Positions 5,459 through 32,340 of a stretch of DNA of 55,132 nucleotides are shown one piece after another. Every line of letters starts with the position of its first letter. Position 1 is the first letter of the stretch. This stretch comes from an uncultured Clostridium sp. (GTDB taxonomy: Bacteria; Bacillota_I; Bacilli_A; RF39; UBA660): NCBI GenBank assembly GCA_964649245.1, contig CAZYOS010000002.1:1-55132 (forward strand), given 5' to 3'. The notes beneath the pieces are model-generated. The model made no database searches. It was given only the letters and a program-made list of their open reading frames with translations, and had not been told where the DNA came from. Position numbers and translations under genes: made by a program.

Positions 5459-8400
5459 TTATGAATCGATTAAATACCATGCATAGAATACACTATTTGC
5501 ATAATTATCAGCATTGCCATTTGCCGTATCTAATGGATAATTAATAGTAAGGCCTGCATTATTAGGCAAAAATTCAAATCCGGTTAGATAAGGCGGAACT
5601 ACTCCAGCAAAAGTAACGGTAGTTAGATTTGTTGCGCTAGTAAATGCTCTTTCAGAAATAGCAATAATTCCAGAAGGAATAGTAATTCTTCTAAGCCTTG
5701 TATTACCAGTAAATGAACCACTCGCAATTACTTTTACCGTACTAGGAATAGTAAATGTATTTCCACTTAATGATTTAGCATTAGGCACTTTTATTAAGGT
5801 TTCCATGTCTTTACTATATAAGACTCCATTACTTGAAGCAAAATATAGATTGTTAGTATTAACATTAATAGTAGTTACATATTGATTTCCTGATAAGAAT
5901 GCATTACCTACATTCATTACATTAACTCCTAATGTAACCGTTGTAGCATTAGTAACATCATCAAATGCATCGGTTTCAATTTGTCTTACGGGATACGTTA
6001 CATTACTAATAGTGAATGTATCTGGAACACTAATATTATTACTTGATAAATAACCAGTAATTTTTATATAATCTACGTCCGCGTCAACAATTTCATATAC
6101 AAAATTTTGATAAGTATCTCCCAATTGCCTGATGTTTTGTAATCCCCATAAACTGTCATTTGAATAAGCATCCGTATACCCTCTAGGTACATATACGTAC
6201 AAATAACTTGTATACCATGTATATCCAAAGAAAGATTGTGGTGTTCTAGCTGGTAAAGTGGTTTCAGTTATTTGAGGAGGAACTTGAGTATTAATGTTAA
6301 TTCTAGTTAAATTATTAGTAGCATATGAATTATATAAAGCATAAGCACCAATTGATAATACACCAGTACCTAATGTTGCTGTTCTTAGGTTAGTACAGCC
6401 ATTAAATGCATAATCTTCTATGTAAGTAACCGAGTTAAACGTAATAGTTCTTAATGTAGTTGATTGTTCAAATGAATGAGCACCAATAGTAATTAAATTG
6501 CTACCGCTCAGTGAATATACATTTCTTCTATAGAATGCATAATCCCCAACATCAACAACAGTAGAAGGTAATGTTAAATTCCAGTTTACCCCAGAAACTA
6601 CATTAACTAAGTAGTAAGCTCTCTCACCGATACTTCTTACGAAGTAGTCATCTTCTCCTATTACTATTCTTGATGGTATTGTATAAGAAGAAGATATATC
6701 AGCACCATGATATTCAATGAGAACCCAACCTGTAGAACCATTAATATTAGCAAGTTTTACAGAATAAGCTCCAATATCATATCCATTATGTGTATAAGAT
6801 CCTTGAATTATACCCGTTTCATAAACATAAGGATCAAGTTCAGTAGGCAATATTTCTTGATATGCTTCAACCATAGTCATTGCACCCGCTGTACCAGAAG
6901 GAACATAAACTCTTAGTCTACTTCCTATAACTGTTCCACAATTAGAAAACGCGGTAGGATCAATCGTAATATTAATAGTACTTGAATAAGTTGTGTTATT
7001 AAATATTATTCTTGCAACATTTGTGTCATTTAAGAATGCATTTGCAGCAATACTAGTTACTGTACCAAGGTTAATAACTATCAGGTTGGCGTTATTTTGA
7101 AATGCCGATTCACCAATAGAATACAATCCTTCAAAAGTTGCTGCAGTTAAATTACTTGCACCATTAAATGCATTTTCTTTTATATATAAGCAATTATTAG
7201 CAGTTATGTTTCTAATACCAGTATTATTTTGAAATGCTGATACACCTATATTTAACAAATAATCACTGCTTATATCATAAGATGCTGTTCCATCAAATGA
7301 TGCATGTCCAAATGCATAGTCTCCTATTGAAATAACTGGTATACCAGAAGTTGCATTTTGACTAATTGAAGTTATAAATACAGACAAGTCAGAAATTGAA
7401 TGTCTAACTCGAATTGTAAGACTATATGTTGCACCTGGTTGTATGATATTATTATGAGTTACACTCGTTAGTACAGCAGTATTACCACTAATCACAGCAC
7501 CATTATTATCTGTTGATATTCCAGATATAGTTCCAGAGTTCGGCATATTAATTGTAACTCTCCATGCAGTAGTAGCAGTAGTTCCATTATTAGTAATATC
7601 AATAACAACATTTTTTACATAGTCGCTTCCTTCAATCCATCCAGTGCCATATGAAACCTCACTGCTTAAAAATCTATCATTCAAATCTAATAATGTTGGG
7701 AATTGATAACTACCATCTATTGTACTTCCGTGATATTCAACTATTTCATATCCATTGTTACCATTTATTGTAGTATTTTTTATTGAATAGTCTCCGATAT
7801 CTATTTCATCAATTAAACCACTAGGAATATAACTTCCAACTATATCATCATATGAATAAAAGTAAGGCTGATACTGTGTTGGAAAATGGGCTTTATAAAC
7901 ATCAACAAATTCTTCATTAGTTGTTGTAACTCCATTTGAAACATAGAATCTTTGCCTATTCTCGGTAGATGTTCCAATATTACTAAATACATTAGCATCT
8001 ATTGATAATGAAGGACTACTAGGAGAATCAAAGATTACTTGATATAAATACGGTGCATTTGTAATAGTATTCGCACCCATGGTTTGAACTTTACCAAAAT
8101 TCATTATGTATAAATTATTTGTATTTCTAAATACTCCTGTTCCTAATAAATTTAAGTTATTAAATGACCCTTGAGTAATAGATGATCCAGAGAATGCATA
8201 ATTATCTATTGTAACAACATTATTTAATGTTACATGTCTAATTCCAGAGTTATTAGCAAACGCATTCTTTCCTATATATAAGATATTACTTGATTCAATA
8301 TCAAATGTAGTACCAGTTTCAGTAGCAACATGAGAATAAGCATTTTCTCCAATAGATATAACATTATGAGATGTTGCATTAGGAACAGTAGTTCTAATGC

Positions 8401-11400
8401 TTGATATTTCAATATCTGTTATTCCATTAGTTGTACTCTTAATATGGAAATTAACTGTTTTAGAAGCACCTGCAGCTAATTTACCTATAGAAGCATTTCC
8501 ATTCTTAAAAGTTATAACACTTGTTCCATTTACCGCTGTAACTCCTGCACCAGTTTCACCATACATACCGCCATCAATAACAACATCAACTTCCCAAGCA
8601 CTTATTTCTAAATCACTCGTATTAGTCATTGTTACAGCGACAGAAACATCTCTTAATCCTGCTCTATTTACAAAATATGAAATATCTAAAGCATCAGTAC
8701 CAAGAGTAACAGTCGCGGGTAAAACATAACTACTATTTAAATCAGGTCCGTGATATTCAATTATTTCATAGTCAGTAACATCACTACCAGAAGCATTCTG
8801 TTTAGTTACCTCTCTTACGGAGAACAAACCAATATTATAATTAATTGCTCCAGTGTAATGGCCAATAATTGTACCAGTTGGATATATATAATCAGCTAAA
8901 TCTGTAAAAATACCTCTATAAAAATCAAGTAAATTGTTTTCATCAGGTACATACATTCTAAATCTATTAGCAATATTAGTACCTGTGTTTTCAAAAGCAT
9001 CACTTGCATAATTAACATTTCTAAGAGTATTAGTAAAAAATACACTAGTCAAATTAGGTGTTTCAGCTGCAGCTAAAGTTCCAACTTCAGTTACAGGACC
9101 TAGTTTAAGTCTGTAAAGTTCATCACAATTATAGAATGCTCTAGTTCCCAAAGTTTTAAGTTTCTCAAAGAATCCATAATGTATAGTACTTCCTTCAAAT
9201 GCCGATTCACCTATAGTAGCAACTTTTGCTGCAACTACATGACCAATATCAAATCCATAAAAAGCACCTTTGCTAATGTTTATAAGTTTTTCAGATTCAA
9301 TATTAAATTCAGAACCACTAGCAACAACTGTATTCTGATAAGCACCTTCACCTATAGATACAACATCTTTTGTTGTTCCGTTTGCTGTTAAATAAGTTGG
9401 TAAGTTTGAAGTTAAATCAGGTCCTTGATAACTAATTATTTCATATCCAGTCACACTGGCATTATTTGTATCTCTAACAGTAACAGTTCTAACTGTATAA
9501 TTAGATAAATTATAAGGAACAGCCATATACTGATATGAACCAACATCAATTCCAGTAATATAAATATAATTAGCATTATCAGGAAATTTTTCTTTATATA
9601 GTGATAATACAGTTTTTCCACTTGCAAGAGTAGCATCTGGAACATAAAATCTAAGTCTACCATCGATATAAGCTCCCCAATTATTAAAGAATGCATTAGT
9701 TCCCACAGTTAAATCAATTTCTTCAGTATTATTAACAAGTAAACTATTACCATTGTTAATATAAAATCTTTGCATTTGAGGACAATTAGAAAATGCATAA
9801 TCTCCAACAACAGAAAGAGTACCTACACTTGCTTCATATAGATTAAGAGAATTTGCAAATGCATAATCATCGATAGTTATAACATTATTAAGTTGAATTG
9901 TCTCTATAGGAGTATTATAAAATGCATAATTTCCTATATAAGTAGCCCTATTAGCAGTAATACCAGTTAAATTAGTTTGATAAAATGCATAATCTCCAAT
10001 GTACGTAACATTATTAAAGTACTCTACAGCAGTTAAATTAAGTCCATAAAATGCACTAGGATCTATTCTAGTTATAGTATCGGGTAGAGTTAATTTAACA
10101 CCACTCGTGTTTACAATATTCATTTCTCTAAAACTATTATTTCCAATTTCAGTAACATTCTTTGAAGAGCCCTGATATGTTATAGTTTCAGGAATTCCCA
10201 ATGTAGTAGCAGCAGCAGATAAATATTTATTAACAACATATGATATTCCAAGTCCTGTATTAGTATTAAACACAAAATATCTTCTATCATCATCTAAATT
10301 ACCACTTATAAATAAATATTCAGGAGAAATACCTTGAACATTAGAATAAGTTGATATACTTCCATTTGGAACGAATATTCTAGCACTTGTTCCAAAAGTA
10401 TTAGTTGCTAACGTAGGTGGAACAGAAGAAACAAATTTTACATATATAGAAGAGTCAAAAGCCGCACTTCCAATAGTTGTTACTGTACTAGGTATAGTAA
10501 TAAAATTAAATTCATCATCAGTTGAAGCAGGAATAGCTCCTAGTTGAACTCCAGAAAAAGCATTATTTCCTATTTCAGTAACAGTTTTAGGTAAAATAAC
10601 TGTTTTAAGAGTAGTCTTATTTAAAAAAGCATTATTAGGAATTTTATTATTAGTAGTTCCATCAGTAACTCTCGAATTGTATAAACTAATATATTCTAGT
10701 GAGGACATTGCACTACTGTTAGCATAAACGAAATCTTCAAGTTCAAAATACTGTGCATTTAATGTCCATATAACGAGTTTCTCAATATTATCTATATCCT
10801 GTGAAATAGTAGTAGATCCCTGATTTTCGAAGTAAGCTTCAAGAAGTCCCTGTAATGTATCCGGAGCCGCCTTAATATAAACTATATATGAATTTAATTC
10901 ATTTTCTATAGGAACAACAGATATATCATCTTGATTCGTTTGAATATCACCTATATCAAAGTTTTCTGAACCTCCAACAGTAATATCACCAGATGTAATA
11001 CCTTTAATTATCAAAGTATTTCCACTATTAGGTGCTAAATATGGAGCAGCATTAGATGGCAATAATATTCCATAACTGCCTAGTATTCCATAAATTTCTC
11101 CTAAATTATATACATAAATTTGAGCTTTCGTGTATGTTTCTTGTAAAGTCATATTACTAAAGTCCAATTGAGTAACTGATCCATTGTTTACAACTTCTAT
11201 ATTAGTTGAACCATCAGCAGCTGTAATATTTCCAACTACGACTTCGGGTCCAATAGTTATTCTTGAGTTAGAGTCAACAATCATATCTATAGGTACTAGT
11301 CCAGTTGAACTCTTTACTATATGAGCAGAATCTAAATATAATCCATCAGTTTCACCATCTTGTATTACATTAACATTAAATTCTCCACCAACCACGACAT

Positions 11401-12508
11401 CATATGAATTTTCGGATCCTACAATTGTTACATTTGCTTTTGGAGTATTCAATATAAAATTTTCTCCAACATTTAAACTTCCATATCCAGAAGCGTTAAT
11501 AGTAAGATTTCCAAGATTAGCAAATTCATACACTAAGTCCTGTGAAACATTTAAATTAAATCCATTAAGATCCAAGTTAACGCGCTTTGTTATATTTAAT
11601 GTACCAGACAAATTAATATTATCCATTAATCTAATAGTATCACCAGCAACTGCTGAATTAAGAATTTCTCTTAATTGAGTTTCGTTTTGAACATCAAGTA
11701 TTTGTCCTTCTCTATTCTCTGCAGTAATTACGCCAACTTGACTACTATATGCATTTAAATGAATAGATAGACTGCTATCGGAATATCTTCCAGTATTAAC
11801 TCCCGAATACATACCATAATCAAGTCTATATATTTTACTACTTTTAACATTTTCAACCGGAGCTGCAACAGTATCTATTTTCATTAAATTATTAAGCAAT
11901 GTCATATTTCTAACAGGTATAGCTGTATCATTTTCCATAGAAGCAGATGGTTGATGTGATGCTGCATAAGCTTCAAGTTTACTATCATATGTTCCTAAAA
12001 CAGTATCATTTACCGCACCAGTCACTTCATATAATCTATAATATAAAATTCCAGCAACTTGTGTTAAATCAGAAGATGGAGTAGAACTAGTAGATACTTC
12101 AATGTAATGGCCTTCTAAACTAAATGCTAATGAAAATTCCATATCTAAAGTACCAGTATTTTCAACTTCAATATATTTAGATCCTACTGTGATATTACTC
12201 ATATTAGTTTCATACATAATTGTTTGTACTTCATTATTATCAGATATTTCAATACCATCTTCATCATATTGCGTTATGTTATGTGAAATACGACCTGTAT
12301 TAAGTAAAGCCCCTGCTCCAGCAAATTCATCATATAGCCATGCAAATGACTCAGTTAAAATAAATGCTACAAATATGATAATAGCCAAAGATTTTCTAAT
12401 ATTCTTATTTTTCAATAATTCTTTAATATTATTAGATGCAAAAAAGTATTTTATATTTGTAAAACATTTATTTATTGCACTACTAATACTATGAATTATT
12501 TTTTTCAT
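5459..12508 (-). CDS. Giant (2,349 aa) surface adhesin: SipW-type signal, TasA/CalY-like N-domain, beta-helix-like segment, about five BspA-type LRR super-modules with Ig/CBM-like inserts
   Basis: The ATG at 12508 (MKKIIHS...) is preferred over the TTG at 12529 used by the ORF track. The signal ends ...AFILTESFAWLYDEF. The N-domain has TasA-like hallmarks (IEVENTGTLDMEFSLAF ... GRYSDSSLSIHLNAYSSQ). BspA/TpLRR-type repeats recur many times (IGNNAF/IGDYAF/IGESAF...L..I.LP..V). There is no LPXTG, SLH or choline-binding anchor. Confidence 0.8.
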   Translation of the reverse strand: MKKIIHSISSAINKCFTNIKYFFASNNIKELLKNKNIRKSLAIIIFVAFILTESFAWLYDEFAGAGALLNTGRISHNITQYDEDGIEISDNNEVQTIMYETNMSNITVGSKYIEVENTGTLDMEFSLAFSLEGHYIEVSTSSTPSSDLTQVAGILYYRLYEVTGAVNDTVLGTYDSKLEAYAASHQPSASMENDTAIPVRNMTLLNNLMKIDTVAAPVENVKSSKIYRLDYGMYSGVNTGRYSDSSLSIHLNAYSSQVGVITAENREGQILDVQNETQLREILNSAVAGDTIRLMDNINLSGTLNITKRVNLDLNGFNLNVSQDLVYEFANLGNLTINASGYGSLNVGENFILNTPKANVTIVGSENSYDVVVGGEFNVNVIQDGETDGLYLDSAHIVKSSTGLVPIDMIVDSNSRITIGPEVVVGNITAADGSTNIEVVNNGSVTQLDFSNMTLQETYTKAQIYVYNLGEIYGILGSYGILLPSNAAPYLAPNSGNTLIIKGITSGDITVGGSENFDIGDIQTNQDDISVVPIENELNSYIVYIKAAPDTLQGLLEAYFENQGSTTISQDIDNIEKLVIWTLNAQYFELEDFVYANSSAMSSLEYISLYNSRVTDGTTNNKIPNNAFLNKTTLKTVILPKTVTEIGNNAFSGVQLGAIPASTDDEFNFITIPSTVTTIGSAAFDSSIYVKFVSSVPPTLATNTFGTSARIFVPNGSISTYSNVQGISPEYLFISGNLDDDRRYFVFNTNTGLGISYVVNKYLSAAATTLGIPETITYQGSSKNVTEIGNNSFREMNIVNTSGVKLTLPDTITRIDPSAFYGLNLTAVEYFNNVTYIGDYAFYQTNLTGITANRATYIGNYAFYNTPIETIQLNNVITIDDYAFANSLNLYEASVGTLSVVGDYAFSNCPQMQRFYINNGNSLLVNNTEEIDLTVGTNAFFNNWGAYIDGRLRFYVPDATLASGKTVLSLYKEKFPDNANYIYITGIDVGSYQYMAVPYNLSNYTVRTVTVRDTNNASVTGYEIISYQGPDLTSNLPTYLTANGTTKDVVSIGEGAYQNTVVASGSEFNIESEKLINISKGAFYGFDIGHVVAAKVATIGESAFEGSTIHYGFFEKLKTLGTRAFYNCDELYRLKLGPVTEVGTLAAAETPNLTSVFFTNTLRNVNYASDAFENTGTNIANRFRMYVPDENNLLDFYRGIFTDLADYIYPTGTIIGHYTGAINYNIGLFSVREVTKQNASGSDVTDYEIIEYHGPDLNSSYVLPATVTLGTDALDISYFVNRAGLRDVSVAVTMTNTSDLEISAWEVDVVIDGGMYGETGAGVTAVNGTSVITFKNGNASIGKLAAGASKTVNFHIKSTTNGITDIEISSIRTTVPNATSHNVISIGENAYSHVATETGTTFDIESSNILYIGKNAFANNSGIRHVTLNNVVTIDNYAFSGSSITQGSFNNLNLLGTGVFRNTNNLYIMNFGKVQTMGANTITNAPYLYQVIFDSPSSPSLSIDANVFSNIGTSTENRQRFYVSNGVTTTNEEFVDVYKAHFPTQYQPYFYSYDDIVGSYIPSGLIDEIDIGDYSIKNTTINGNNGYEIVEYHGSTIDGSYQFPTLLDLNDRFLSSEVSYGTGWIEGSDYVKNVVIDITNNGTTATTAWRVTINMPNSGTISGISTDNNGAVISGNTAVLTSVTHNNIIQPGATYSLTIRVRHSISDLSVFITSISQNATSGIPVISIGDYAFGHASFDGTASYDISSDYLLNIGVSAFQNNTGIRNITANNCLYIKENAFNGASNLTAATFEGLYSIGESAFQNNANLIVINLGTVTSIAANAFLNDTNVARIIFNNTTYSSTINITIDPTAFSNCGTVIGSRLRVYVPSGTAGAMTMVEAYQEILPTELDPYVYETGIIQGSYTHNGYDIGAYSVKLANINGSTGWVLIEYHGADISSSYTIPSRIVIGEDDYFVRSIGERAYYLVNVVSGVNWNLTLPSTVVDVGDYAFYRRNVYSLSGSNLITIGAHSFEQSTTLRTITFNSVTYIEDYAFNGCTNLRTATLGTGVLSIGAYALYNSYATNNLTRININTQVPPQITETTLPARTPQSFFGYTWYTSYLYVYVPRGYTDAYSNDSLWGLQNIRQLGDTYQNFVYEIVDADVDYIKITGYLSSNNISVPDTFTISNVTYPVRQIETDAFDDVTNATTVTLGVNVMNVGNAFLSGNQYVTTINVNTNNLYFASSNGVLYSKDMETLIKVPNAKSLSGNTFTIPSTVKVIASGSFTGNTRLRRITIPSGIIAISERAFTSATNLTTVTFAGVVPPYLTGFEFLPNNAGLTINYPLDTANGNADNYANSVFYAWYLIDS

Positions 12509-12518
12509 AAAATCCTTT

Positions 12519-13397
12519 CTAATCTTCAATTATTATAATATCTGCCACTTTTTCACTATATTCTTTAATTTCATCAGATAGTTTTGAATTAATTAAAGTA
12601 TTTTCTAATCCTCTGCTAGGAGTAGAAACTTTCTTTTCCTCCTTATATTTCATTATTTCATTTCTTAAATCATCACTTATAATAGTTTTTTCAAGTTCAC
12701 GATCTATTTCTTCTTTAAACTCTCTACTATAAATTGTTTTTTCAAGTTCCTCATTTTTATTTTTAATTTCTACAACCATATTGTCTGGCTTTTTAGTTTT
12801 AAACAATGAGAATTTTTTCTTATTTTTGTTTTTATAATCATTTAACAATTGTATTTCTTCTGAAGTTAATCCATTTGGTTTAATTTCATGTTTAATATTT
12901 GATAACTGCTTTATTAAAATTATTATTAATGGAATAAATACTAGTATCACAAACCCAATTTTCGATCTAATAATTTTACTTACTAGACTTATTAAGAACA
13001 TTCTATAAACAAGTTTCCCATATATCTGACTTCCTTTTACTACGGGGTCTATCATATTTGTTACCGTTCCTTTAGTATAAAATAAATACTCACCTGTATC
13101 AGAAACATCAACTGTTTTAACCATATGTGTTACTGTTTTTCCTTTAAAATCTGATTCCAATCCTTGGTAAGTAACTATATCTCCTTCTTTTATTGTTTTA
13201 GGTTCAACCTTTTTAACAAGTATTACATCACCAACTTCCAAATTAGGTGACATAGAACTGGTCACAATTACGAATGTTCTGTATCCAAATATACCATCTT
13301 TTTTAAACACAAATTTTTGAGCCAATATAAAGACACATATCACTATTGATAATACAAATAATAAATTTTGAATAAAATTAAATATTTTTGTCTTCAT
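12519..13397 (-). CDS. sipW: Archaeal/ER-type signal peptidase I (SipW-like) paralog 1 with long charged C-terminal tail
   Basis: RBS AAAGGA. An N-terminal TM helix is followed by the Ser box VTSSMSPNLEVGDVILV and the His box KTVTHMV. A second TM helix is followed by a roughly 125-aa Lys/Glu-rich tail containing the repeat ELEKTI(Y/I)S. Box E is divergent (TKGTVTNMID instead of GDNN). Confidence 0.75.
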   Translation of the reverse strand: MKTKIFNFIQNLLFVLSIVICVFILAQKFVFKKDGIFGYRTFVIVTSSMSPNLEVGDVILVKKVEPKTIKEGDIVTYQGLESDFKGKTVTHMVKTVDVSDTGEYLFYTKGTVTNMIDPVVKGSQIYGKLVYRMFLISLVSKIIRSKIGFVILVFIPLIIILIKQLSNIKHEIKPNGLTSEEIQLLNDYKNKNKKKFSLFKTKKPDNMVVEIKNKNEELEKTIYSREFKEEIDRELEKTIISDDLRNEIMKYKEEKKVSTPSRGLENTLINSKLSDEIKEYSEKVADIIIIED

Positions 13398-13409: not shown

Positions 13410-13976
13410 CTATGGTTTCAAAAAATTAATATGCTCTATAGATAAACTTTTATCAGCAACCTCATTAGCAGCAGTTTTATCAATTGTAATATACCAATAT
13501 ATGCTTTTTGTTTCTAAAGGTTCTACTGTAAAATTATCAATAAATTTAAGTATTTTTTCACCACTTGTTGATTCTTCAATGTTTTCACCTAAATTAAGTT
13601 TTTTTATCATTGGAGAAGTAGTACCAAAATACATTTTAGGACTTAATGCTGATACATCACCAGTAATATCTGAAAAAACTATTGAAGTAGATGCTCTAGT
13701 GTTGCCATTATTTGTTATGTCTATTCTATATAATTTTGTATCATTAGGTGCCATATTAACAACGCTAAATATAGGAGTGGTAATTAATTGATAAGTTAAT
13801 GTTTCAGAATTATATTCATATAATTCAACATCAATATCTAATGTATTAATTATCAGGTCTCTATTATAATTAACAATTTCACCTTGAGAGGCAACAGTAA
13901 CCATCCATGCTACAGAAGCAGCTATTAATAAAATTGTTATTATTAAATTAAAATATGATTTTATATTTTCTTTCAT
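13410..13976 (-). CDS. Small TasA/CalY(camelysin)-like secreted protein, SipW-type signal
   Basis: The signal is ...LLIAASVAWMVTVASQ. Further hallmarks are NTLDIDV, YRIDITNNGNTRASTSIVF and the C-terminal ADKSLSIEHINF. Confidence 0.55.
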   Translation of the reverse strand: MKENIKSYFNLIITILLIAASVAWMVTVASQGEIVNYNRDLIINTLDIDVELYEYNSETLTYQLITTPIFSVVNMAPNDTKLYRIDITNNGNTRASTSIVFSDITGDVSALSPKMYFGTTSPMIKKLNLGENIEESTSGEKILKFIDNFTVEPLETKSIYWYITIDKTAANEVADKSLSIEHINFLKP

Positions 13977-18907: not shown

Positions 18908-18948
18908 AAAAATACTCCTATTATACCTATTATTCAGTATACATACTA

Positions 18949-25041: not shown

Positions 25042-25062
25042 AAAAAAAGGAGTAAAACTCCT
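25042..25062 (-). terminator. Short hairpin plus T-run overlapping the stop of the 460-aa gene
   Basis: On the minus strand AGGAG-TTTTA-CTCCT is followed by TTTTTTTG. Confidence 0.4.
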
Positions 25063-26443
25063 AATCAACTGAATATACTTGAAAATAACCAGAAAACGAT
25101 TTGCCTTGATCAAAATTTTGATTTTCATTTAGACCTTTAACTTTAAAAGTAAAAGTATATTCTTGTGTTGAAGTTGGGCCTATTACAACTGTATCAGCAA
25201 TAAATGATGTATTTCTTGGTACCATAGTATAATCCTGTGAATAGCCTTCTCCTGTTGATTCAATCTTATATAGGAAATTATCACTAGTGAAAGTATAATT
25301 AGTAACTACCATTTCAATTTTATATCTTACATACTCTGAAGACCTGTTTGTAATTGTTATCTTCTTAGTTGCATATTTAGTAACATTACCAGTCTGATCT
25401 TCAGGAAACAAATTATCAATAACAATTTGTTTGGAATCAATAAAATCTATAATAAACTCTGCAGTTGCTATATCTGCTTGATTATTTCCTATCGCAGTGG
25501 AAGAACCAGTATTGTTTTCAATAACAGCTATATTTTTAACGCAATTAAGATCACAGACTCCATCTCCATCTGTATCACAATGAAGATTACATACTCCATT
25601 ATTATTTGTATCAAAATTCAAGTCAGCATTTCCATCATTGTCATTATCAATATACATGTTAGCCTTTCCATCACCATTTAAATCTATGTTGGTGTCTGGC
25701 CATCCATCCCCATTAACATCACAATTCAAATCACAGACTCCATCATTGTCTAAGTCTTGATTAATTAAATTAAAGTCTGCTTTTCCATCTCCAGTCGTAT
25801 CCACATTAAATACAGCTTTTTGATTTCCTTTATAATCAATATTTACATATGGTTTTTTTCCATCATTAGAAATATTAATATTTTCCTTATCATCTTTATC
25901 GGTATCAATATTTAAATCAGCAATTCCGTCATTATCTATATCTAAATTTAAATGTGCTATTGATAGGTATCTTAATGTGACATAAGTTGAACCAAGTGCA
26001 ATGAAAGTAAACAATCCAAGCAATATAATTATTAATATTAAACTTCCTTTTTTGTTTGTTTCGAAACTAAAGTTCATTTTATTGCCATCTTTAGTTACAA
26101 CTAATTTATATGGTAATCTTAAATTATTATCATCAGGATCACAACTTAATTTTAAACATTTAATGGCAAGCTTTCTTATTATTGAATAATCAATATCATC
26201 ATAATCTTTATAAAGGTCAGTTAAAACAAGAGCAAATACTCTAGACTGATCTTTTACATCTAGGCCTTCTAACTTATATAAATCAACAGTATTTGATTTA
26301 TATACATCGTCTAGAAATGAATCATCAATAATATATGAATCCGCAGTATTTTCTTTTTTAATTTCTGGTTGTTCAGTAGTAGCAGAATTTTGATTATCAG
26401 AAACTATTTCTTCGGAAATATTATTATTTTCTTCATTACTCAT
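25061..26443 (-). CDS. Bitopic membrane protein: cytoplasmic N-domain, TM, about nine Ca-binding DxDxDG (TSP type-3/dockerin-like) repeats, C-terminal TasA/CalY-like beta-sandwich
   Basis: The start is re-set to the ATG at 26443 (RBS AAAGGAG; MSNEENNN...). The TM helix is SLILIIILLGLFTFIALGSTYV. The repeats read DIDNDGIADLNIDTD...DVNGDGWPDTNIDLNGDGKANMYIDNDNDGNADLNFDTNNNGVCNLHCDTDGDGVCDLNC. The C-terminus reads KITITNRSSEYVRYKIEMVV...NENQNFDQGKSFSGYFQVYSVD. Confidence 0.65.
   Translation of the reverse strand: MSNEENNNISEEIVSDNQNSATTEQPEIKKENTADSYIIDDSFLDDVYKSNTVDLYKLEGLDVKDQSRVFALVLTDLYKDYDDIDYSIIRKLAIKCLKLSCDPDDNNLRLPYKLVVTKDGNKMNFSFETNKKGSLILIIILLGLFTFIALGSTYVTLRYLSIAHLNLDIDNDGIADLNIDTDKDDKENINISNDGKKPYVNIDYKGNQKAVFNVDTTGDGKADFNLINQDLDNDGVCDLNCDVNGDGWPDTNIDLNGDGKANMYIDNDNDGNADLNFDTNNNGVCNLHCDTDGDGVCDLNCVKNIAVIENNTGSSTAIGNNQADIATAEFIIDFIDSKQIVIDNLFPEDQTGNVTKYATKKITITNRSSEYVRYKIEMVVTNYTFTSDNFLYKIESTGEGYSQDYTMVPRNTSFIADTVVIGPTSTQEYTFTFKVKGLNENQNFDQGKSFSGYFQVYSVD
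25538..25948 (-). repeat. Coding tandem array of Asp/Asn/Gly-rich Ca-binding-loop repeats (period about 11-13 aa)
   Basis: The D-x-[DN]-x-D-G-x-x-D motif recurs about nine times. Paired Cys residues (GVCDLNC, GVCNLHC) resemble thrombospondin type-3 repeats. Confidence 0.7.
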
Positions 26444-26474
26444 TTTAACTCCTTTCATTTATTTCTGTATTTTA

Positions 26475-27569
26475 TTAAATATTATCACAAATCTTGTTAA
26501 TATAAAAATCATTTGCTTTTATAAACTTATCGTATATTTTAATAATATCTTCTTCTTTATTCTTTCTTTTCTTTATAGCAGATTTTATCTCACTCATTAT
26601 AAAAGTAGATAATTTTTTTTCAGATATATCAGATATATCTATATATTCTTCTAATAAAGCTAATATTTTTTCAGCAAGAGCATTGCCTGAAATATCTTCC
26701 CTATTTTCTTTTATATTCATACTTATATAATCTAAATAATATGTTAAATCAAATTTATTCTTAATATTTAAATTGCTTAGATTTTCTATTGTTGATGCCT
26801 TATATATAGGTTCCCCTATTTCACTATTCATTAAGAATTCCCATAATGTTAATGCTTTTTGAAAATTAGTATCCTTTAATATAATATTTGTCTTTCTAAT
26901 AGGAGATTTAACGGGTACTGCTTGAGACAAACTTTTAATAAAAATACTATTTTCAAAATCAGTTACAATATTTTGAAGGTTCACAATTCTTTCTTGCATT
27001 TCTTCTTTATTAAAATCTTTAGGCAATTCATTTTTTAAAGATTCAAAATTAACTGATATTTTAATGTTTTCGTTATTATATGATGATTCTCCATTATATT
27101 CTAATGAATTAATTATTTCAATATGAGGTTCTTCTAATTCCTTCTCAGTATATTTTCTAATAAATCTACCTAACTCTTTTATTAGTGTGTAGATAAATCT
27201 ATTCTCATATAAATCCCATGTTTCTTCTTTTTGAACATTTAATACTTTGGATGGTTTAATCATTCCATCTTTATCAATGTCTTGAATAAAATTAGTATGC
27301 TGTGCTAAATGTTGTATTGTTTCAGTGGATATTTTTTTTGATTTTTCTACTATAACTATATCTTCTTCTTGTTGAATAAAACGTCTAGGATTTCTAATAA
27401 TATTATCTAAATATGGAAGGGCTTCTTCTACAATTGGCATCCAACTAAAATCACGAGAAACAGTATCAGTTTTTCGACTATATTCTAGTTCGGAATTAGT
27501 TTTATCATTAAATAATTTAAAATCTTCAGCACTAATTTTACCAATTATTTCTGTAATTTTATCTGTCAT
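26475..27569 (-). CDS. DUF2357 / McrC-N-terminal-like partner of the McrB-like GTPase (paralog 2); no nuclease motif seen by eye
   Basis: RBS GGAGG. It carries the motifs NIIRNPRRFIQQEEDIVIVEKSKK, WDLYENRFIYTLIKEL and SPIRKTNIILKDTNFQKALTLWEFL. It is collinear with the 16216-17325 product. Confidence 0.5.
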   Translation of the reverse strand: MTDKITEIIGKISAEDFKLFNDKTNSELEYSRKTDTVSRDFSWMPIVEEALPYLDNIIRNPRRFIQQEEDIVIVEKSKKISTETIQHLAQHTNFIQDIDKDGMIKPSKVLNVQKEETWDLYENRFIYTLIKELGRFIRKYTEKELEEPHIEIINSLEYNGESSYNNENIKISVNFESLKNELPKDFNKEEMQERIVNLQNIVTDFENSIFIKSLSQAVPVKSPIRKTNIILKDTNFQKALTLWEFLMNSEIGEPIYKASTIENLSNLNIKNKFDLTYYLDYISMNIKENREDISGNALAEKILALLEEYIDISDISEKKLSTFIMSEIKSAIKKRKNKEEDIIKIYDKFIKANDFYINKICDNI

Positions 27570-27586: not shown

Positions 27587-29107
27587 TTATATATTTTTTT
27601 TAAGGTTTAATAAATATTTTACACACTCTTTCATATTTCCATCGCCAAATGTTTGGTTTAAGAAATCAATAAATCCATCAACTTCATTTCTTATATATGA
27701 CATATTTAGTTGTTCAAATTTTCTTAATATTTTGTGACATACCAAGTAATCAACAGCTACTATTTCACTACCACCACATGCAACATATACTGGAATAAAC
27801 TCTCTCATTTGTTGTAAAATACGATTACCAAAAGATAATCTGAAATGATCAATAACATAATCGTCCATTTTAGAAATTTTATCAAGAATATCTTGACTCA
27901 ATGGTTTAGATTTTTGTGCTTCATCAAATAATTGTTCTAAATATTCTGATGTAATATGAAGTTTTTCAGTTTTAGGGGCATCAAATTTTGGTGCTTTGTC
28001 ATTAATATCTATAGGTAAAGCACGATCATAAACTTTATCAGTTACCATGAATGTTGAATCATCATTATTTATTGTTCCTATATACCACATGTTTTTTGGT
28101 ATTTTAAACTTGCCATCAATAAGCTTTTTGGGATCGGTTGGCCAAGGATTAGCAACTAAATCAATAACCCACTCATTATAACTAGGCATTTCCATAATAG
28201 ACAACATCTCAGCAAAATAGTACTCAACACGGGCTATATTCATTTCATCTAAAATAGAAATATATATTTTATCATTATAAGATGCTTCATACATTTTACT
28301 TAATAATTCAGTTTCATTAAATTTTTTAGTAAATTCATTAAAATATCCAAATAATTCAGCTCTATCTCTCCATGACGGTTGAACAGGGGCTATTACAGAT
28401 TCATTATCTAAAAAACTACCTGCAGCATATGCAAGAGAAGTTTTACCTGTACCAGAAATACCTTGTAAAATTATCAATCTATTAGAAGCAAATGCAGAAA
28501 TAAATAATCTGATTAAATCAATATTATAAAAAAGCTTTAATTCAGATGCAGCATAATTTCTAAAAGAATCGCATAATTCATTCAATTTTATTGTGCTATT
28601 AGTTGGTTCTGGAACGTAATTTTCCCATTTTTCGTCAATTCTACTTAATTTATAAAATCTTTCATCATGCTCATGCTCTAATTCTTCAATTTCTTCTTTT
28701 TCTTTAATTTCTCCATTTTCATCAGTTGAAGGAATTTCACCATTCGCCATTGCTAAATATTTTTCATTTTCTTTTTTTAATTTTATATTTTCATAATTAA
28801 GATTTTCATTTTCTTCAAGAAGCATTTCATGTTCATGAGACTTTCTTCTGACTCTTACTATTCTTTTAAATATTTTAATAATAATAAATATTAATATAGC
28901 TACTAAAGCGACTAAACAAATAATAGCAAGAACAACTATAAATACTTTTGCCCCAGTTAAATCACTTTTGTATTTTCCTATAATATCTATATAATTAATT
29001 ACATTAAACATCTGTAATAATCCTTTAAAGACTCCTTCAAAAATGCCTATAAAGCCTTTAAAGAAAGGTGCTAGAAATTCTAAGAAAAATTTTTCCACAT
29101 TACCCAT
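27587..29107 (-). CDS. Membrane-anchored McrB-family AAA+ GTPase (paralog 2), 506 aa
   Basis: RBS GGAGG. The N-terminus MGNVEKFFLEFLAPFFKGFIGIF is followed by a TM helix (VFIVVLAIICLVALVAILIFIIIKIF-KRIVRVRRK) and a coiled coil. The AAA+ domain has Walker A LQGISGTGKTSL, ILDEMNIARVEYYFAEMLS and YIGTINNDDSTFMVTDKVYDRA. The AAA+ region is about 75% identical to paralog 1 by eye. Confidence 0.7.
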   Translation of the reverse strand: MGNVEKFFLEFLAPFFKGFIGIFEGVFKGLLQMFNVINYIDIIGKYKSDLTGAKVFIVVLAIICLVALVAILIFIIIKIFKRIVRVRRKSHEHEMLLEENENLNYENIKLKKENEKYLAMANGEIPSTDENGEIKEKEEIEELEHEHDERFYKLSRIDEKWENYVPEPTNSTIKLNELCDSFRNYAASELKLFYNIDLIRLFISAFASNRLIILQGISGTGKTSLAYAAGSFLDNESVIAPVQPSWRDRAELFGYFNEFTKKFNETELLSKMYEASYNDKIYISILDEMNIARVEYYFAEMLSIMEMPSYNEWVIDLVANPWPTDPKKLIDGKFKIPKNMWYIGTINNDDSTFMVTDKVYDRALPIDINDKAPKFDAPKTEKLHITSEYLEQLFDEAQKSKPLSQDILDKISKMDDYVIDHFRLSFGNRILQQMREFIPVYVACGGSEIVAVDYLVCHKILRKFEQLNMSYIRNEVDGFIDFLNQTFGDGNMKECVKYLLNLKKNI

Positions 29108-30242
29108 TATTTACCTCCATAAAATCTAATTTTGTAAAAATTAAATCATCCTCTTTGTATATTTTTTCATCACATTTTTTAATATACTTAATCTTTTTTG
29201 ATTCAATATTTTCTTTATATTTAGTAATATATTCTTCGTTTGCAATTAAAATAACATCATTACTAAATTTTATGTTACTTACATCTTCTAATTTATTACA
29301 ATCAATAAATATTTTAATACCATATGACATTATTTTATTTAATTCTTCACATTCTTCATATTCATCACTATCAATTATTAATGATATGTGACTACATATA
29401 TAACGGTTTTTTAAAGGTTTAATGAAAGTGGATATCATAGTTTTCTTTTTATAAAAATTCTTATTTACTTTAAAAGCCATACAAATTCTCTGATCATATA
29501 ATATGCATTTTAATAATGATACTATGGCTAATTCATAAGATATTAAAATAAATGTATTATCTATTCCTATCTTGTTATTAACTTTTTCAATATCGCTTTT
29601 TTGAAATGTTTTTATATCATCTAATATATAATTATATTTTACCTGATACAATCTATTATTTTCATTTAATAATAAGTAGTCATTATAGGAACTATTATTA
29701 ATAGATTTCCTTAAATATGATCTTAATCTCTTATCATCCTTTGTATTTGTTTTAACTAAATCCAATAACTTATTCATATGTATTTTAGTCTTGTCATCTT
29801 TTTTATAAATAAAATTTTGTGATACTTTTCCCGCAATACTAATAATAAAATCTGATTTATTAGGTACAATAACAATAGCATCTCTTAATCTATTTATTAA
29901 AAAAGCAAAATAGATAATATATGATAAATATATTATCTCAATATTTTTATTTTTAATATCCAGTTTCTCTTTTTCATAATGTTCTATTACACATTGTAAT
30001 ATAATTTTAATATCATTATCTGTTTCAGAGTCAAACTTATAATGTTTATTTACTATACTATAATCATTAGAAAGCATCATATAATACTTGCTATAATAAA
30101 TATCTAATATCTTTTTTACAGTACTTAATTTACTAGGTATTATTACATCTAATTTGTATTGAAAAACAATTAATATTTCATTAATATAATCAACTAATTC
30201 AGACTTCTTTTTAGAAAAGTATTTATCTAATACACTAGTCAT
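29100..30242 (-). CDS. Cytoplasmic hypothetical protein (380 aa), paralog of 21460-22659, translationally coupled to the McrB-like gene
   Basis: RBS AAGGAG. There is no TM or signal. An 8-nt overlap joins it to the downstream McrB-like gene. The C-terminal part (GIKIFIDCNKLEDVSNIKFSNDVILIAN) is loosely reminiscent of a degenerate EAL/TIM-barrel segment, but this is very uncertain. Confidence 0.55.
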   Translation of the reverse strand: MTSVLDKYFSKKKSELVDYINEILIVFQYKLDVIIPSKLSTVKKILDIYYSKYYMMLSNDYSIVNKHYKFDSETDNDIKIILQCVIEHYEKEKLDIKNKNIEIIYLSYIIYFAFLINRLRDAIVIVPNKSDFIISIAGKVSQNFIYKKDDKTKIHMNKLLDLVKTNTKDDKRLRSYLRKSINNSSYNDYLLLNENNRLYQVKYNYILDDIKTFQKSDIEKVNNKIGIDNTFILISYELAIVSLLKCILYDQRICMAFKVNKNFYKKKTMISTFIKPLKNRYICSHISLIIDSDEYEECEELNKIMSYGIKIFIDCNKLEDVSNIKFSNDVILIANEEYITKYKENIESKKIKYIKKCDEKIYKEDDLIFTKLDFMEVNNG

Positions 30243-30310: not shown

Positions 30311-30330
30311 AAAGATAGTTGCCTATCTTT
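30311..30330 (-). terminator. AT-rich hairpin plus U-rich tail abutting the sipW-3 stop codon
   Basis: On the minus strand AAAGATAG-GCAA-CTATCTTT is followed by TATTTTAT. Confidence 0.4.
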
Positions 30331-30950
30331 TATATATTTCCATTTTTATTTCTTAAACTTAACATTTTATTTTTCAAAAGTAATAGTTTTAATATCTTAT
30401 AAATATCATAAGATATAATTGCAAGTGATGGTATCATAACAGCTATAATCCAGCCGCCCTTACTAGCTAAAAAGAACTGCAATCTTCCAAGTTGAGGAAA
30501 AACTGCTACCACTTTACCAACTACATTATCAGGAGATACTTTTTCATTATCTGCTTTTTGATTAGCATCTCCTTTAGTTTGAAAAACCAGTCCTCCTAAA
30601 TCAGGAACATTCAGTACATCTGCTACTCTATGCGTAATCGGAGTACCCCCAAAAAAATCATTTGTAGAAAAGAAAGTAATAACATCTCCTACTTTTATTT
30701 TAGAAGGATCATCTTGCCTATATGTTAACACTACATCATATACTGCTATATTCGGTGTCATACTTGGACTAATTATAGTATACAATCCAACTAGTGGCTT
30801 GTGTCCTTTTGCTTCTGCAGCCTTTCCTGATACGACATAAAATACAAGAAATAATCCTATTATAACTAAAAGCCCTACAATAAAGTATCCAACTGTTTTA
30901 GAAATAATATTTAGTATTTTTTTAATTTTTTCTTTTTTTGTTAGTTCCAT
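30330..30950 (-). CDS. sipW: Archaeal/ER-type signal peptidase I (SipW-like) paralog 3
   Basis: RBS AGGTGA. It has an N-terminal TM helix, the Ser box IISPSMTPNIAVYDVVL, the His box TPITHRV, box E TKGDANQKAD and a C-terminal TM helix. Confidence 0.8.
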   Translation of the reverse strand: MELTKKEKIKKILNIISKTVGYFIVGLLVIIGLFLVFYVVSGKAAEAKGHKPLVGLYTIISPSMTPNIAVYDVVLTYRQDDPSKIKVGDVITFFSTNDFFGGTPITHRVADVLNVPDLGGLVFQTKGDANQKADNEKVSPDNVVGKVVAVFPQLGRLQFFLASKGGWIIAVMIPSLAIISYDIYKILKLLLLKNKMLSLRNKNGNI

Positions 30951-30957: not shown

Positions 30958-31491
30958 CTAATCTATCGCCTTTTCCAAAGTAATCATTCCATCAAATATC
31001 CCACTACTTTTTTCACCAGTATACTTGATATTTAAAGTATAATAGTGTACTTCATCAGGTGATATTTTTCCAGTACCAAGTGTAGTGCTTTCAGCAGGCA
31101 TATTTCTATTAGATATGTTAATGACTGTATCATTTGAATCCTTGGTTTTAGTATAACAAGATAAAGAATAAGTAAAATCATCATTTTCACCATCAAAAGC
31201 TTTAGAATTTACATCGAATAACAATTTATAATTAGCACTATATTCATAAGAATTATTACTAATAGAAAAATCATAATTATAATCTGTATTAGGCTCTAGA
31301 CCATTAAAAATTATTTTATTAGAACTATTATAACTAATTAATAAACTTACTTTTTTAACAACAATGTTTATATTATTTTCTTTTTCATTTTTCGTTTTAT
31401 AATAATTATAAATTATTCCAGAAGTCATAGTTATTAAAACAAGTAATATTATAACAAAAATTATCATTAACCTTTTACTATCATTTTTCAT
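30958..31491 (-). CDS. Small membrane-anchored TasA/CalY-like beta-sandwich protein (no AWF cleavage motif)
   Basis: RBS GGAGA. The TM helix is LMIIFVIILLVLITMTSGIIY. Further motifs are YDFSISNNSYEYSANYKLLFDV and the C-terminal HYYTLNIKYTGEKSSGIFDGMITLEKA. Confidence 0.5.
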   Translation of the reverse strand: MKNDSKRLMIIFVIILLVLITMTSGIIYNYYKTKNEKENNINIVVKKVSLLISYNSSNKIIFNGLEPNTDYNYDFSISNNSYEYSANYKLLFDVNSKAFDGENDDFTYSLSCYTKTKDSNDTVINISNRNMPAESTTLGTGKISPDEVHYYTLNIKYTGEKSSGIFDGMITLEKAID

Positions 31492-31538: not shown

Positions 31539-31545
31539 TAAATAT

Positions 31546-31569
31546 AAAAAAAGTAGACATTTGTCTACT
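31546..31569 (-). terminator. Intrinsic terminator after the 216-aa TasA-like gene
   Basis: On the minus strand AGTAGAC-AAAT-GTCTACT is followed by TTTTTTATAT. It is preceded by two further hairpins (TTCAAC..GTTGAA and the GC-rich palindrome TATGTGCGCGCATATA). Confidence 0.6.
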
Positions 31570-31636
31570 TGTGTTTACAATTATATATGCGCGCACATAT
31601 TCAACGGATAGAGTTGAATAACATACAATATAATTA

Positions 31637-32287
31637 TTAAGATCCTGAAGTAACAGTAACACGTAATCTACCAAGGAATGCTTTTCCTTGAGCAGCATTT
31701 TGATCAGAATTATCATCCTTAAACTTAATAGTGTAAGTATACTTGTGAACTGATACTCCTGTTATTGTTCCACGATGTGCAGCTGTTAATTCATTATTAG
31801 TTCCAACTAATGGTACTGGGACAAAATCAGCTGATGAACCAGTTCCGGTAAATGCAGCAACATCACCAGTCAAGAATGTTGAACCAGTTGCAGTATATTC
31901 TATCTTATTAGTAAACCAATCACCAGATGTACCTGTTGCGCCTTGAGATGTATTAACTAGTGCAGATAAAGTATTAGTAGTAACATCTAACCAAATAGTA
32001 TAAATAATATTACTTGAAAGATTTGATGTACTGTTAGATATAGTAAATGTTTTAGTTGCTATATTCCCTGTCTCACCTTCAGGTCTAATATTTGATAAAT
32101 TAATAGTATCGCCATCTTCAAAAGTAATGCTACCTAAAACAGCAGTTGTTACTATAATACTTGATGCGTTATCATTTCCAGAAACAGTAACAGAGAACCA
32201 CGCAAATGTAGCACCTATGATTGCAACTAGTAATGTGGCAATTCCTATAACTGATAAAAATATCGTTTGACCCTTGTTATTATCCAT
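31637..32287 (-). CDS. TasA/CalY-like secreted protein (216 aa), SipW-type signal; candidate major fibre subunit
   Basis: Very strong RBS AAAGGAGG with its own promoter and terminator. The signal is ...LLVAIIGATFAWFSVTVSG. The protein is Thr/Ser/Gly-rich. Further motifs are KTFTISNSTSNLSSNIIYTIWLDV and the C-terminal DQNAAQGKAFLGRLRVTVTS (compare TasA NKYQGNSIKLQFSFEATQ). Confidence 0.6.
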   Translation of the reverse strand: MDNNKGQTIFLSVIGIATLLVAIIGATFAWFSVTVSGNDNASSIIVTTAVLGSITFEDGDTINLSNIRPEGETGNIATKTFTISNSTSNLSSNIIYTIWLDVTTNTLSALVNTSQGATGTSGDWFTNKIEYTATGSTFLTGDVAAFTGTGSSADFVPVPLVGTNNELTAAHRGTITGVSVHKYTYTIKFKDDNSDQNAAQGKAFLGRLRVTVTSGS

Positions 32288-32311
32288 AACTCTTCCTCCT
32301 TTACTATATTA

Positions 32312-32340
32312 AGTTTATCAGCAATTGATTTTTTTTTCAA
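32312..32340 (-). promoter_or_regulatory. SigmaA-like promoter with extended -10 (TTGAAA-17-TGaTAAACT) for the 216-aa gene
   Basis: The -35 TTGAAA is at 32340-32335, the spacer is 17 nt, and TGa plus TAAACT is at 32320-32312. It lies in the divergent intergenic region shared with the yfhO-like gene. Confidence 0.45.

Follow-up and report, generated by a model that had tools for sequence, protein, structure and literature searches.

What two McrB-like GTPases are doing among genes for signal peptidases, secreted proteins and a giant adhesin is the question raised by a locus on contig CAZYOS010000002.1 of an uncultured Clostridium sp. (assembly GCA_964649245.1). The window that we analysed, the whole stretch of 55,132 nucleotides, has a G+C content of about 26% and carries 21 open reading frames (ORFs) between positions 5459 and 32287, all on the minus strand. 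An earlier note on this DNA had proposed that these genes encode an undescribed, TasA-type surface-fibre system. Our analysis established computationally the identities of the domains, the topology of the membrane proteins, the loss of the nuclease, the EAL fold of one partner and the conservation of gene order across two classes of Firmicutes. We consider it probable that the locus encodes a SipW-dependent surface fibre or adhesin-display apparatus that is controlled or powered by an exapted McrBC-EAL complex. The narrower proposal, which we put forward tentatively, is that of a new surface-fibre pathway in Gram-positives, in which a membrane-tethered, nuclease-less McrBC motor and an EAL-fold sensor would drive or gate the assembly of pilins of one protein family (family A, described below, whose fold would be new), with a leucine-rich repeat (LRR) protein at the tip; such a machine would occur in hundreds of species of gut Bacilli and Clostridia.

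Signal peptidases and membrane-tethered GTPases

The three signal peptidases of the locus (Table 1), which the earlier note had already recognised, all exceeded the cut-off (51.85 bits) of the NCBIfam model TIGR02228 for signal peptidase I of the endoplasmic reticulum (ER)/archaeal type, and their sequences contain the motifs SM.P, TH and KG..N. They did not reach the equivalog model of Bacillus SipW (SipW2 scored 129 bits against a cut-off of 190). The product of SipW1 has a K/E-rich C-terminal extension of about 120 aa, and its gene runs into the start of that for the adhesin. When the entire window was translated in six frames, the motif [ST][YFV]AW[FLM] had exactly six occurrences, against 0.01 expected from composition, and all six close the N-terminal hydrophobic helix of genes of the locus, which upholds the six SipW-type N-termini described earlier. 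These six proteins bear a SipW-cognate signal (T-[FWY]-A-x-F type, bulky residue at P2'). TasA needs SipW because of the Phe at its P2' position, as stated in PMC10269814; by analogy, cleavage by SipW is predicted after the alanine of the motif, with W then at P1' and one of F, L and M at P2'. None of the NCBIfam signal-peptide models matched a locus protein at E <= 0.01, the presence of TIGR04088 in the library being unchecked.

The Walker A (GISGTGKTS) and Walker B (ILDEMN) motifs and the signature region (GTINNDDST) are invariant in the two GTPases, McrBa and McrBb, and INNDDS is invariant across the eight McrB-like family members that were aligned. Taken alone, NNDD could be of the NxxD type; we read it as NxD because it aligns without gaps with the NHDE of an 813-aa AAA family ATPase of a Polaromonas plasmid (36% identity, E = 1e-60), in which the GTPase domain is C-terminal and follows an extension of about 430 residues. 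Comparison of the AAA+ domain with the PDB recovered E. coli McrB weakly (E = 1.4e-7). The N-terminal DNA-binding domain of McrB is not present in McrBa and McrBb, and a transmembrane segment stands in its place. The N-terminal 150 residues or so consist of an amphipathic segment, the transmembrane helix and a heptad-like charged helix, an architecture compatible with that of FtsB-like proteins; the matches to Pfam FtsL (E = 0.015) and DivIC (E = 0.38) are both below threshold.

The gene that follows each GTPase encodes an McrC-like protein, so that the two paralogous pairs of an anchored McrB-like protein and a DUF2357-like partner that had been read from the sequence are indeed present (Table 1). 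The McrC-like family keeps the DUF2357 motifs NPRRF and YENRF. No D..(D/E)xK nuclease motif is conserved after position 135 in the alignment of 19 McrC-like sequences, Pfam finds only DUF2357 in them, and the family profile found no McrC in the PDB. The C-terminal tails of the window proteins are K/E-rich, poorly conserved and about 70-100 aa long.

Much longer tails were seen in the Clostridial McrC-like orthologues (L053:11569-13743 and those of 18 other loci), which measure 640-895 aa and have no transmembrane segment. Their tails, of roughly 270-530 aa, are highly repetitive and rich in K, E, R and A (for example KEKERIAKEKAK), and each looks like a single alpha-helix or coiled-coil spacer. 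In one McrB-like homologue (P0012, 646 aa), a stretch of about 135 residues of the GTPase domain occurs twice (alignment columns 427-562), owing either to an error of assembly or to a genuine tandem duplication.

Conservation and layout of the two modules

More than 8000 proteins of the McrB-like family were detected; among the 120 best matches listed, identity to the query was 52-98%, in nearly all cases over the full length. From at least 560 McrB-like relatives among GTDB species representatives, mostly uncultured gut or rumen Firmicutes among those seen, we surveyed the 80 best loci and annotated them with hidden Markov models built from the window proteins, which resolved two orthologous module types. 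The 80 loci belong to uncultured gut and rumen Bacilli (some labelled 'Tenericutes'), Christensenellaceae, Acutalibacteraceae, Oscillospiraceae, Ruminococcus and Oribacterium.

Loci of type a have the order X - McrB - McrC - M465, X being a homologue of X380 and the M465 gene always standing directly after McrC. X and M465 are present in 35/35 of them and secreted family-B proteins in 11/35. Loci of type b, found in Bacilli and Clostridia, have the order (X) - Am - A - SipW - McrB - McrC - A - A - T188 - SipW - giant, where A is a family-A gene and Am its membrane-anchored form, or a rearranged order in which SipW genes flank the pair. SipW is encoded in 47/48 and family A in 46/48; the sole type-b exception is a contig of 4 kb. 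Reciprocal look-ups from three family-A homologues (L085-L087) returned the same 11-gene order in 3/3 cases (X-Am-A-SipW-McrB-DUF2357-A-A-T188-SipW-LRR giant). This neighbourhood survey, which the earlier note had called for, supports, at the level of gene order, its claim that the GTPase pairs are functionally tied to the SipW and substrate genes and are not chance neighbours.

The same results bear on two other explanations. Ordinary McrBC-like restriction genes might have been inserted in a SipW/TasA-like operon with which they share no function, since such genes are mobile, common and present in two copies in the window. The recurrence of the association in all but one of the type-b loci, across families and classes, and in every reciprocal look-up effectively refutes this. 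The loss of the DNA-binding and nuclease domains and the gain of a transmembrane anchor also speak against it, and we give such a chance juxtaposition next to no weight. The other explanation is an envelope-associated immunity, in which the McrBC-like pair and the EAL-fold protein, descended from type IV restriction and akin to CoCoNuT, would act as a sensor for defence or abortive infection; the sensor would watch the fibre or adhesin (as a phage receptor) or the entry of DNA, and the secreted proteins would be its guarded target and not its product. Both McrB-like proteins match the PADLOC candidate defence model PDC-M26A (4.5e-36 for McrBa and 2.1e-33 for McrBb), they belong to the NxD branch, which is home to the predicted CoCoNuT defence systems (Bell et al. 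2024, PMC11090510), and related GTPase domains occur on 248 plasmid records. However, neither the McrC-like protein nor any neighbour showed a nuclease or other effector domain, the surroundings are housekeeping genes and not a defence island, and the DNA-binding N-domain has been replaced by a transmembrane segment. The conservation of the 11-gene order with more than 50% identity across two classes is also unlike that of defence genes, which turn over fast. We therefore regard immunity as an unlikely function for this locus.

In the window, most neighbours of the gene train are -11 to +30 bp apart, and the larger gaps measure 682, 145, 111, 87 and 78 bp. The co-direction and tight spacing reported earlier were thus confirmed, while the count of 22 genes was too high: because the ORFs at 24484-24804 and 24704-24964 overlap and are doubtful, we count about 20 genes rather than 21 ORFs. 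Nor is the locus a single 27-kb super-locus. It consists of two paralogous modules, of about 7 genes (module a) and 12 genes (module b), which are separated by a terminator-like hairpin and the 682-bp gap and are found apart in other genomes. One metagenome-assembled genome (MAG) carries both module types on separate contigs (L006 and L057); the side-by-side position seen in the window is therefore no general rule. Within the gap (24379-25060), only two overlapping small ORFs were seen (106 aa with a TTG start, and 86 aa); they have no family match, the gap has no Rfam match, and it could serve module b as promoter or regulatory region. The hairpin directly after T216 is read by us as an attenuator behind a major subunit gene.

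Table 1. Features of the locus and their positions in the window (an arrow marks the predicted cleavage point)
Feature	Positions	Strand	Description	Supporting data
Module a	32287 to 25061	-	T216, M177, SipW3, X380, McrBa, McrCa, M465	
T216	31637..32287	-	Secreted family-B protein, module a	Signal end GATFA↓WF; N-terminal transmembrane helix 8-26
Hairpin after T216	31551..31570	-	Terminator-like hairpin directly after T216	Pattern scan; RNA fold of 31530-31640, z = -3.9
M177	30958..31491	-	Small membrane-anchored family-B-like protein	Transmembrane segment 9-27; hhalign to M465 C-terminal domain, prob 89
SipW3	30330..30950	-	ER/archaeal-type signal peptidase I, one gene from McrBa	TIGR02228 90.0 bits
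X380	29100..30242	-	Cytoplasmic; helical N-terminal domain and predicted degenerate EAL fold	Immediately upstream of McrB-like gene
McrBa	27587..29107	-	McrB-family GTPase, NxD branch	Transmembrane segment 59-77, then coiled-coil-like segment
McrCa	26475..27569	-	McrC-like, DUF2357 N-domain only	Pfam DUF2357 2.1e-9; K/E-rich helical tail; no transmembrane segment
M465	25061..26458	-	Bitopic membrane protein, module a	Transmembrane segment 138-156; hhalign to T216, prob 99.7
Hairpin after M465	25048..25062	-	Terminator-like hairpin, end of module a	One hit in the pattern scan, where 0.2 were expected
Module b	about 24964 to 5459	-	Y535, X399, M232, T366, SipW2, McrBb, McrCb, T372, T357, T188, SipW1, LRR giant	
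Y535	22771..24378	-	Cytoplasmic protein	Beside several type-b modules
X399	21460..22659	-	X380 paralogue, first conserved gene of module b	hhalign of X380 and X399 families, prob 95.6, 308 columns
M232	20765..21463	-	Membrane-anchored family-A protein without cleavage motif	Transmembrane segment 23-41; hhalign to T357, prob 99.0
T366	19642..20742	-	Secreted family-A protein, module b	Signal TATYA↓WF
SipW2	19037..19621	-	Signal peptidase immediately upstream of McrBb	TIGR02228 95.9 bits
McrBb	17333..18958	-	Second NxD-type McrB-like GTPase	Transmembrane segment 77-95; 57% identical to McrBa
McrCb	16216..17325	-	Second McrC-like DUF2357 partner	Pfam DUF2357 1.8e-13
T372	15089..16207	-	Secreted family-A protein	VATYA↓WL; hhalign to T366 and T357, prob 100
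T357	13985..15058	-	Secreted family-A protein	VASYA↓WF; hhalign prob 100
T188	13410..13976	-	Small secreted protein	ASVA↓WM; kept directly ahead of the last SipW and the giant adhesin
SipW1	12519..13397	-	Signal peptidase	TIGR02228 70.8 bits; two transmembrane segments
LRR giant	5459..12529	-	Giant BspA-type LRR adhesin, 2356 aa	LRR_5 303 bits, CBM_2 25.6 bits

Several other arrangements were observed among the relatives. Four type-b loci (L045:3519-13865 of Clostridium sp. CAG:567, L054, L063 and L065) contain four to six SipW paralogues, several of which are followed by a secreted protein of about 200 aa with its own signal variant (STTYALF, NSYAWF); these multi-SipW Clostridial loci look like one peptidase per substrate. 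Some type-a relatives encode a 385-aa protein whose S26 peptidase domain is only C-terminal (residues 258-319), after a multi-transmembrane N-terminal extension (L001:15281-16438), followed by a DUF5305 protein (L001:16455-17531). Seven loci (L010, L025, L035, L038, L041, L051 and L077) carry modules typical of Bacilli or Clostridia on contigs labelled 'uncultured Muribaculaceae' or 'Bacteroidales', which are probably mis-binned or mislabelled MAGs.

Secreted proteins, membrane anchors and the EAL-fold partner

The secreted proteins and their anchored relatives fall into two families in hhalign comparisons. Family A comprises T366, T357, T372 and the membrane-anchored M232 (prob 97-100), and family B comprises T216, the C-terminal domain of M465 (prob 99.7) and M177 (prob 89). 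The three membrane-anchored relatives of the secreted proteins that had been suggested were therefore found again, M232 in family A (prob 97-99) and the other two in family B, and each module has a membrane-anchored, uncleaved copy of its own secreted subunit, which is a new detail.

T366 and T216 are rich in Thr, Ala and Gly and low in Lys and Glu, as expected of abundant structural subunits. T366 is the likely major subunit of module b because it is Thr/Ala/Gly-rich, and T216 that of module a because it is Thr/Gly/Ser-rich (T16 G10 S10). T372 and T357 are candidate minor subunits; T372 has an additional C-terminal DUF4073-like domain (28.0 bits, just under the cut-off). The signals of family-B relatives elsewhere begin GATYAYF or GATFAYF. 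M232 is a candidate anchor or nucleator, and in relatives an M232-type gene is kept upstream of the family-A gene. M465 consists, in order, of a cytoplasmic domain of about 135 aa, a transmembrane segment, an Asp-rich region of about 170 aa with DxDxDG repeats and Cys pairs, and the family-B domain. The region at residues 165-335 or so shows about ten Asp-rich repeats (N/D-x-D-x-D-G-D-G-x-x-D) with regular Cys pairs (CDxNCD). These resemble thrombospondin-type-3 or dockerin-like Ca2+-binding loops; they have no Pfam family match.

We then compared these families with TasA. The claim that nine proteins of the locus are TasA/CalY-like did not hold, the kinship being confined to the type of signal peptide and a short motif. 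Pfam Peptidase_M73 matched, among the locus products, T216 alone, at 22.5 bits, which is the cut-off, and over residues 14-88 (the signal and the first strand); it matched 2/14 family-B members and 0/25 family-A members. Comparison of three family profiles with the PDB found no TasA, hhalign of every family against TasA (whose sequence was verified as identical to PDB 8AUR) gave probabilities of 4.5% at most, and tblastn of T216 against plasmids added no support. For family A, 1394 homologues were detected, 0 of them with a Pfam domain. The AlphaFold2 model of T366, made from a 47-sequence alignment, shows an N-terminal helix followed by an all-beta body, with a predicted local distance difference test (pLDDT) score of 86.9 and a predicted TM-score (pTM) of 0.86. 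The Foldseek check of the secreted proteins that the earlier note had proposed, run on T366, showed no TasA-type jellyroll for family A and no match in the PDB at E < 0.001 (best TM-score 0.16). Family A is best described as an uncharacterised family of predicted SipW substrates whose modelled fold is unmatched in the PDB. Homology of families A and B to TasA is thus not supported by the Pfam/NCBIfam, profile, hhalign and tblastn tests or, for family A, by Foldseek. Several families align weakly and non-significantly to the same stretch of TasA (residues ~23-55, NLKPGD..F.F.N.G); this shared alignment is suggestive and may serve as a lead only.

The giant protein at the end of module b had been described as a giant LRR adhesin, and its LRR_5 score agrees with this. 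It also contains CBM_2-like domains, and its SipW-type signal (TESFA↓WL) lies at residues 61-65. Against the HupY/LrrG-like model, it scored 70 bits, far under the 1250-bit cut-off. Giants with the same kind of signal occur in six surveyed loci (L023, L058, L064, L067, L072 and L082), and LRR_5 giants with or without CBM_2 hold the same operon-end position in L085-L087. The giant is a candidate tip or cargo adhesin. T188, which weakly resembles the N-terminus of the giant (hhalign prob 85 over 97 columns), is a candidate adaptor.

X380 carried no annotation. The first search for its homologues returned 7, and an exhaustive profile search of the representatives returned 61 clusters, all of about 360-400 aa, which made structure prediction possible. 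The AlphaFold2 model had a pLDDT of 90.3. When it was compared with the PDB by Foldseek, the 50 matches listed (the best 50 of 528) were all EAL domains (prob 1.0), with E-values down to 2.9e-5 and target-normalised TM-scores up to 0.53, and they included the cyclic di-GMP (c-di-GMP) receptors FimX and LapD. Pfam EAL (PF00563) matched 2/43 members of the family, weakly (best E = 7.8e-4). The conserved columns of the family are Y, K, N and S, against the EAL set E/N/E/D/K/E. On the evidence of the model, X380 is predicted to be a degenerate EAL fold, a detail that is new with respect to Bell et al. At the position of X399, the loci L085-L087 have a gene of 373-396 aa.

These partners bring in a third explanation, that of regulated display or release of adhesins without a polymeric fibre. 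SipW-processed monomers and the LRR adhesin would be held by, or released from, M465 or M232, and the EAL-fold/GTPase complex would carry out LapD-like inside-out signalling across the membrane. The type-a core consists in 35/35 loci of the EAL-fold protein, the GTPase, the McrC-like protein and the bitopic M465, usually without a nearby SipW. Since the invariant neighbours of the type-a GTPase are thus the EAL-fold protein and M465 and not SipW, LapD-like signalling is a serious alternative. That M465 joins a cytoplasmic domain to a family-B domain by way of an Asp-rich, Ca-binding-like spacer outside the cell, that the X380 model matches the degenerate EAL receptors LapD and FimX, and that TasA-type polymerising homology was found in no family all argue for it. 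However, several paralogous secreted subunits, a terminator behind the T/G-rich first gene and, as last gene, a giant adhesin together give the layout that is classic for pilus operons, and the residues that bind c-di-GMP are not conserved. On balance, we judge display or release without a fibre to be somewhat unlikely.

The remaining genes were also examined. Y535 has no Pfam, NCBIfam or PADLOC match, and its homologues occur in L023, L048, L049, L060 and L063. Housekeeping genes flank the locus on the window. A YfhO-family membrane glycosyltransferase (511 bits; 32267-34936, plus strand) is divergent from T216, and its mechanically called ORF overlaps the start of T216 by 21 bp; its true start is probably downstream because the Pfam match begins at residue 57. 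The enzyme could glycosylate the Thr/Ser-rich subunits. It was rejected as a component of the system, being adjacent only in the nearest relative (L004). Just beyond it, a DUF6273 protein is encoded (34943-36103, minus strand), and one large family-B relative has a weak DUF6273 match (E = 0.009), which hints at shared surface-protein modules. Farther away and unrelated to the locus are an AddA/AddB-like helicase-nuclease pair (UvrD and PDDEXK_1; 48341-53738, minus strand) and, at the end of the window, a fragment of an IS110-family transposase (54537-55085, minus strand).

Proposed mechanism and comparison with known systems

The favoured model of a SipW-dependent apparatus under the control of an McrBC-EAL complex would work as follows. 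After export through Sec and cleavage by SipW behind the alanine of the motif, the subunits would build a surface fibre or matrix with the membrane-anchored paralogue (M232 or M465) as its base, a role modelled on that of TapA. The fibre of module b would carry T188 as adaptor and the LRR giant as the displayed adhesin. On the cytoplasmic face, an McrB hexamer, the McrC-like activator and the EAL-fold protein would form a nucleotide-driven switch or motor, which would license, or supply the energy for, assembly or transit across the wall. This GTPase complex would be held at the membrane by its FtsB/FtsL-like transmembrane and coiled-coil region, would probably contact the cytoplasmic domain of the anchor protein and might respond to a cyclic-dinucleotide-like signal.

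Several results weigh against this model. The closest non-membrane relatives of the GTPases are found in predicted defence systems (PADLOC PDC-M26A; the NxD/CoCoNuT-like branch). In the Foldseek comparison of the T366 model, neither TasA nor AbpA nor any other known pilin matched family A in structure, and no family has significant profile similarity to TasA; polymerisation of the locus proteins is inferred. SipW lies within 10 kb in only 5/35 type-a relatives, so the GTPase module has no strict need of an adjacent peptidase and its invariant partner is the M465-type protein together with the EAL-fold protein. The EAL fold of X380 lacks conserved catalytic, metal-binding and c-di-GMP-binding residues. 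A link of the locus to c-di-GMP was looked for and rejected, as the window has no GGDEF motif and no c-di-GMP riboswitch (Rfam gave tRNA only). Finally, the TasA, CalY and BsaA systems function without a dedicated McrB-like GTPase.

If the model is correct, an AAA+ GTPase known only from DNA restriction would have been exapted into a cell-surface assembly machine, and there would be a fourth Gram-positive route to surface fibres, beyond sortase pili, type IV pili and TasA-type fibres. The system would probably govern adhesion in the carrier species via giant BspA-type LRR/CBM adhesins. It offers experimental handles in a secreted family of unmatched fold, in a degenerate EAL-fold partner that suggests control by a second messenger, and in a minimal core of four genes (EAL-fold, GTPase, McrC-like and bitopic anchor).

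The known fibre systems resemble the locus in part. Like tapA-sipW-tasA of B. subtilis and sipW-tasA-calY of B. cereus, it has a dedicated ER/archaeal-type peptidase and signal ends of the T-[FWY]-A-x-F type with a bulky P2' residue, and it shares with the B. subtilis operon a membrane- or wall-associated accessory paralogue, TapA in that case. However, the B. subtilis operon has three genes and no NTPase, whereas the window has about 7 + 12 genes with a GTPase, an McrC-like protein and an EAL-fold protein, and its secreted proteins have no significant similarity to TasA in sequence or, for family A, in structure. In C. perfringens, passage of BsaA oligomers past the peptidoglycan has been proposed to need type IV pilus proteins (PMC11580942). 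With this proposed reliance of a SipW-processed, secreted, matrix- or pilus-like polymer on a distinct machine driven by an NTPase, the sipW-bsa system would be a precedent for NTPase dependence, but the genes of its type IV pilus helper lie elsewhere, whereas the McrBC-like GTPase of the locus is co-encoded. The absence of sortase/LPXTG, type IV pilus, flagellar and type VII secretion system genes claimed by the earlier note agrees with the motif and Pfam/NCBIfam scans: no locus protein has an LPXTG or a prepilin G↓FTLxE motif, no component of the four systems was found in the locus, and the ORFs scanned elsewhere in the window gave no sortase or type IV pilus family either, several ORFs, including those at 41-44 kb, being unscanned.

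Comparison with canonical McrBC and CoCoNuT showed a common AAA+ GTPase core, with Walker A/B and signature motifs, and the GTPase-stimulating DUF2357 N-domain of McrC. The window proteins differ in having neither a DNA-binding nor a long soluble coiled-coil N-domain and no PD-(D/E)xK, HEPN or other nuclease, and their GTPase is anchored in the membrane amid secretion genes. PADLOC recognised in the locus the AAA+ core (PDC-M26A) only, and a reading of the locus as a defence system was rejected. FimX works through PilZ on the ATPase of type IV pili, and adhesin retention is under the control of LapD. X380 resembles both in having an EAL fold without catalytic residues, beside an NTPase linked to a surface-structure system, but it has no GGDEF, PAS or HAMP modules and the residues that contact c-di-GMP are not conserved.

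The closest likeness in the literature contradicts the claim that the system is undescribed. CoCoPALM was named by Bell et al. (2024; eLife 13:RP94800; PMC11090510) in a few sentences, with the analysis deferred to a future paper, for McrB GTPases with an NxD motif and an FtsB-like transmembrane/coiled-coil region that are encoded beside signal-peptidase genes. In that work, NxD followed by E or a second D defines the branch that holds CoCoNuT and CoCoPALM (PMC11090510). The window GTPases have the NxD signature with a following D and adjoining signal-peptidase genes, two of the features of CoCoPALM. In full-text literature, the name occurs only in Bell et al. 2024 and its preprint, and searches on SipW/TasA with McrB, on TasA-like pili and on SipW pili in gut Clostridia returned nothing on the system beyond that paper; since Bell et al. 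alone cover it, and briefly, the window locus is of a named but unexplored kind. The locus and CoCoPALM have in common an NxD-type GTPase with an N-terminal transmembrane and coiled-coil-like region, an McrC homologue and adjoining signal-peptidase genes, and relatives of the window locus bear long helical or coiled-coil-like tails on the McrC homologue. In contrast, the McrC-like tails of the window are short and the type-a module is usually without an adjacent peptidase. The CoCoPALM paper does not mention SipW substrates, anchored paralogues, an EAL-fold partner or giant adhesins (PMC11090510). What the present locus adds to CoCoPALM is the EAL-fold partner, the unmatched fold of family A, the McrC-like protein without nuclease, the anchor paralogues, the adhesin cargo and the minimal core of type a.

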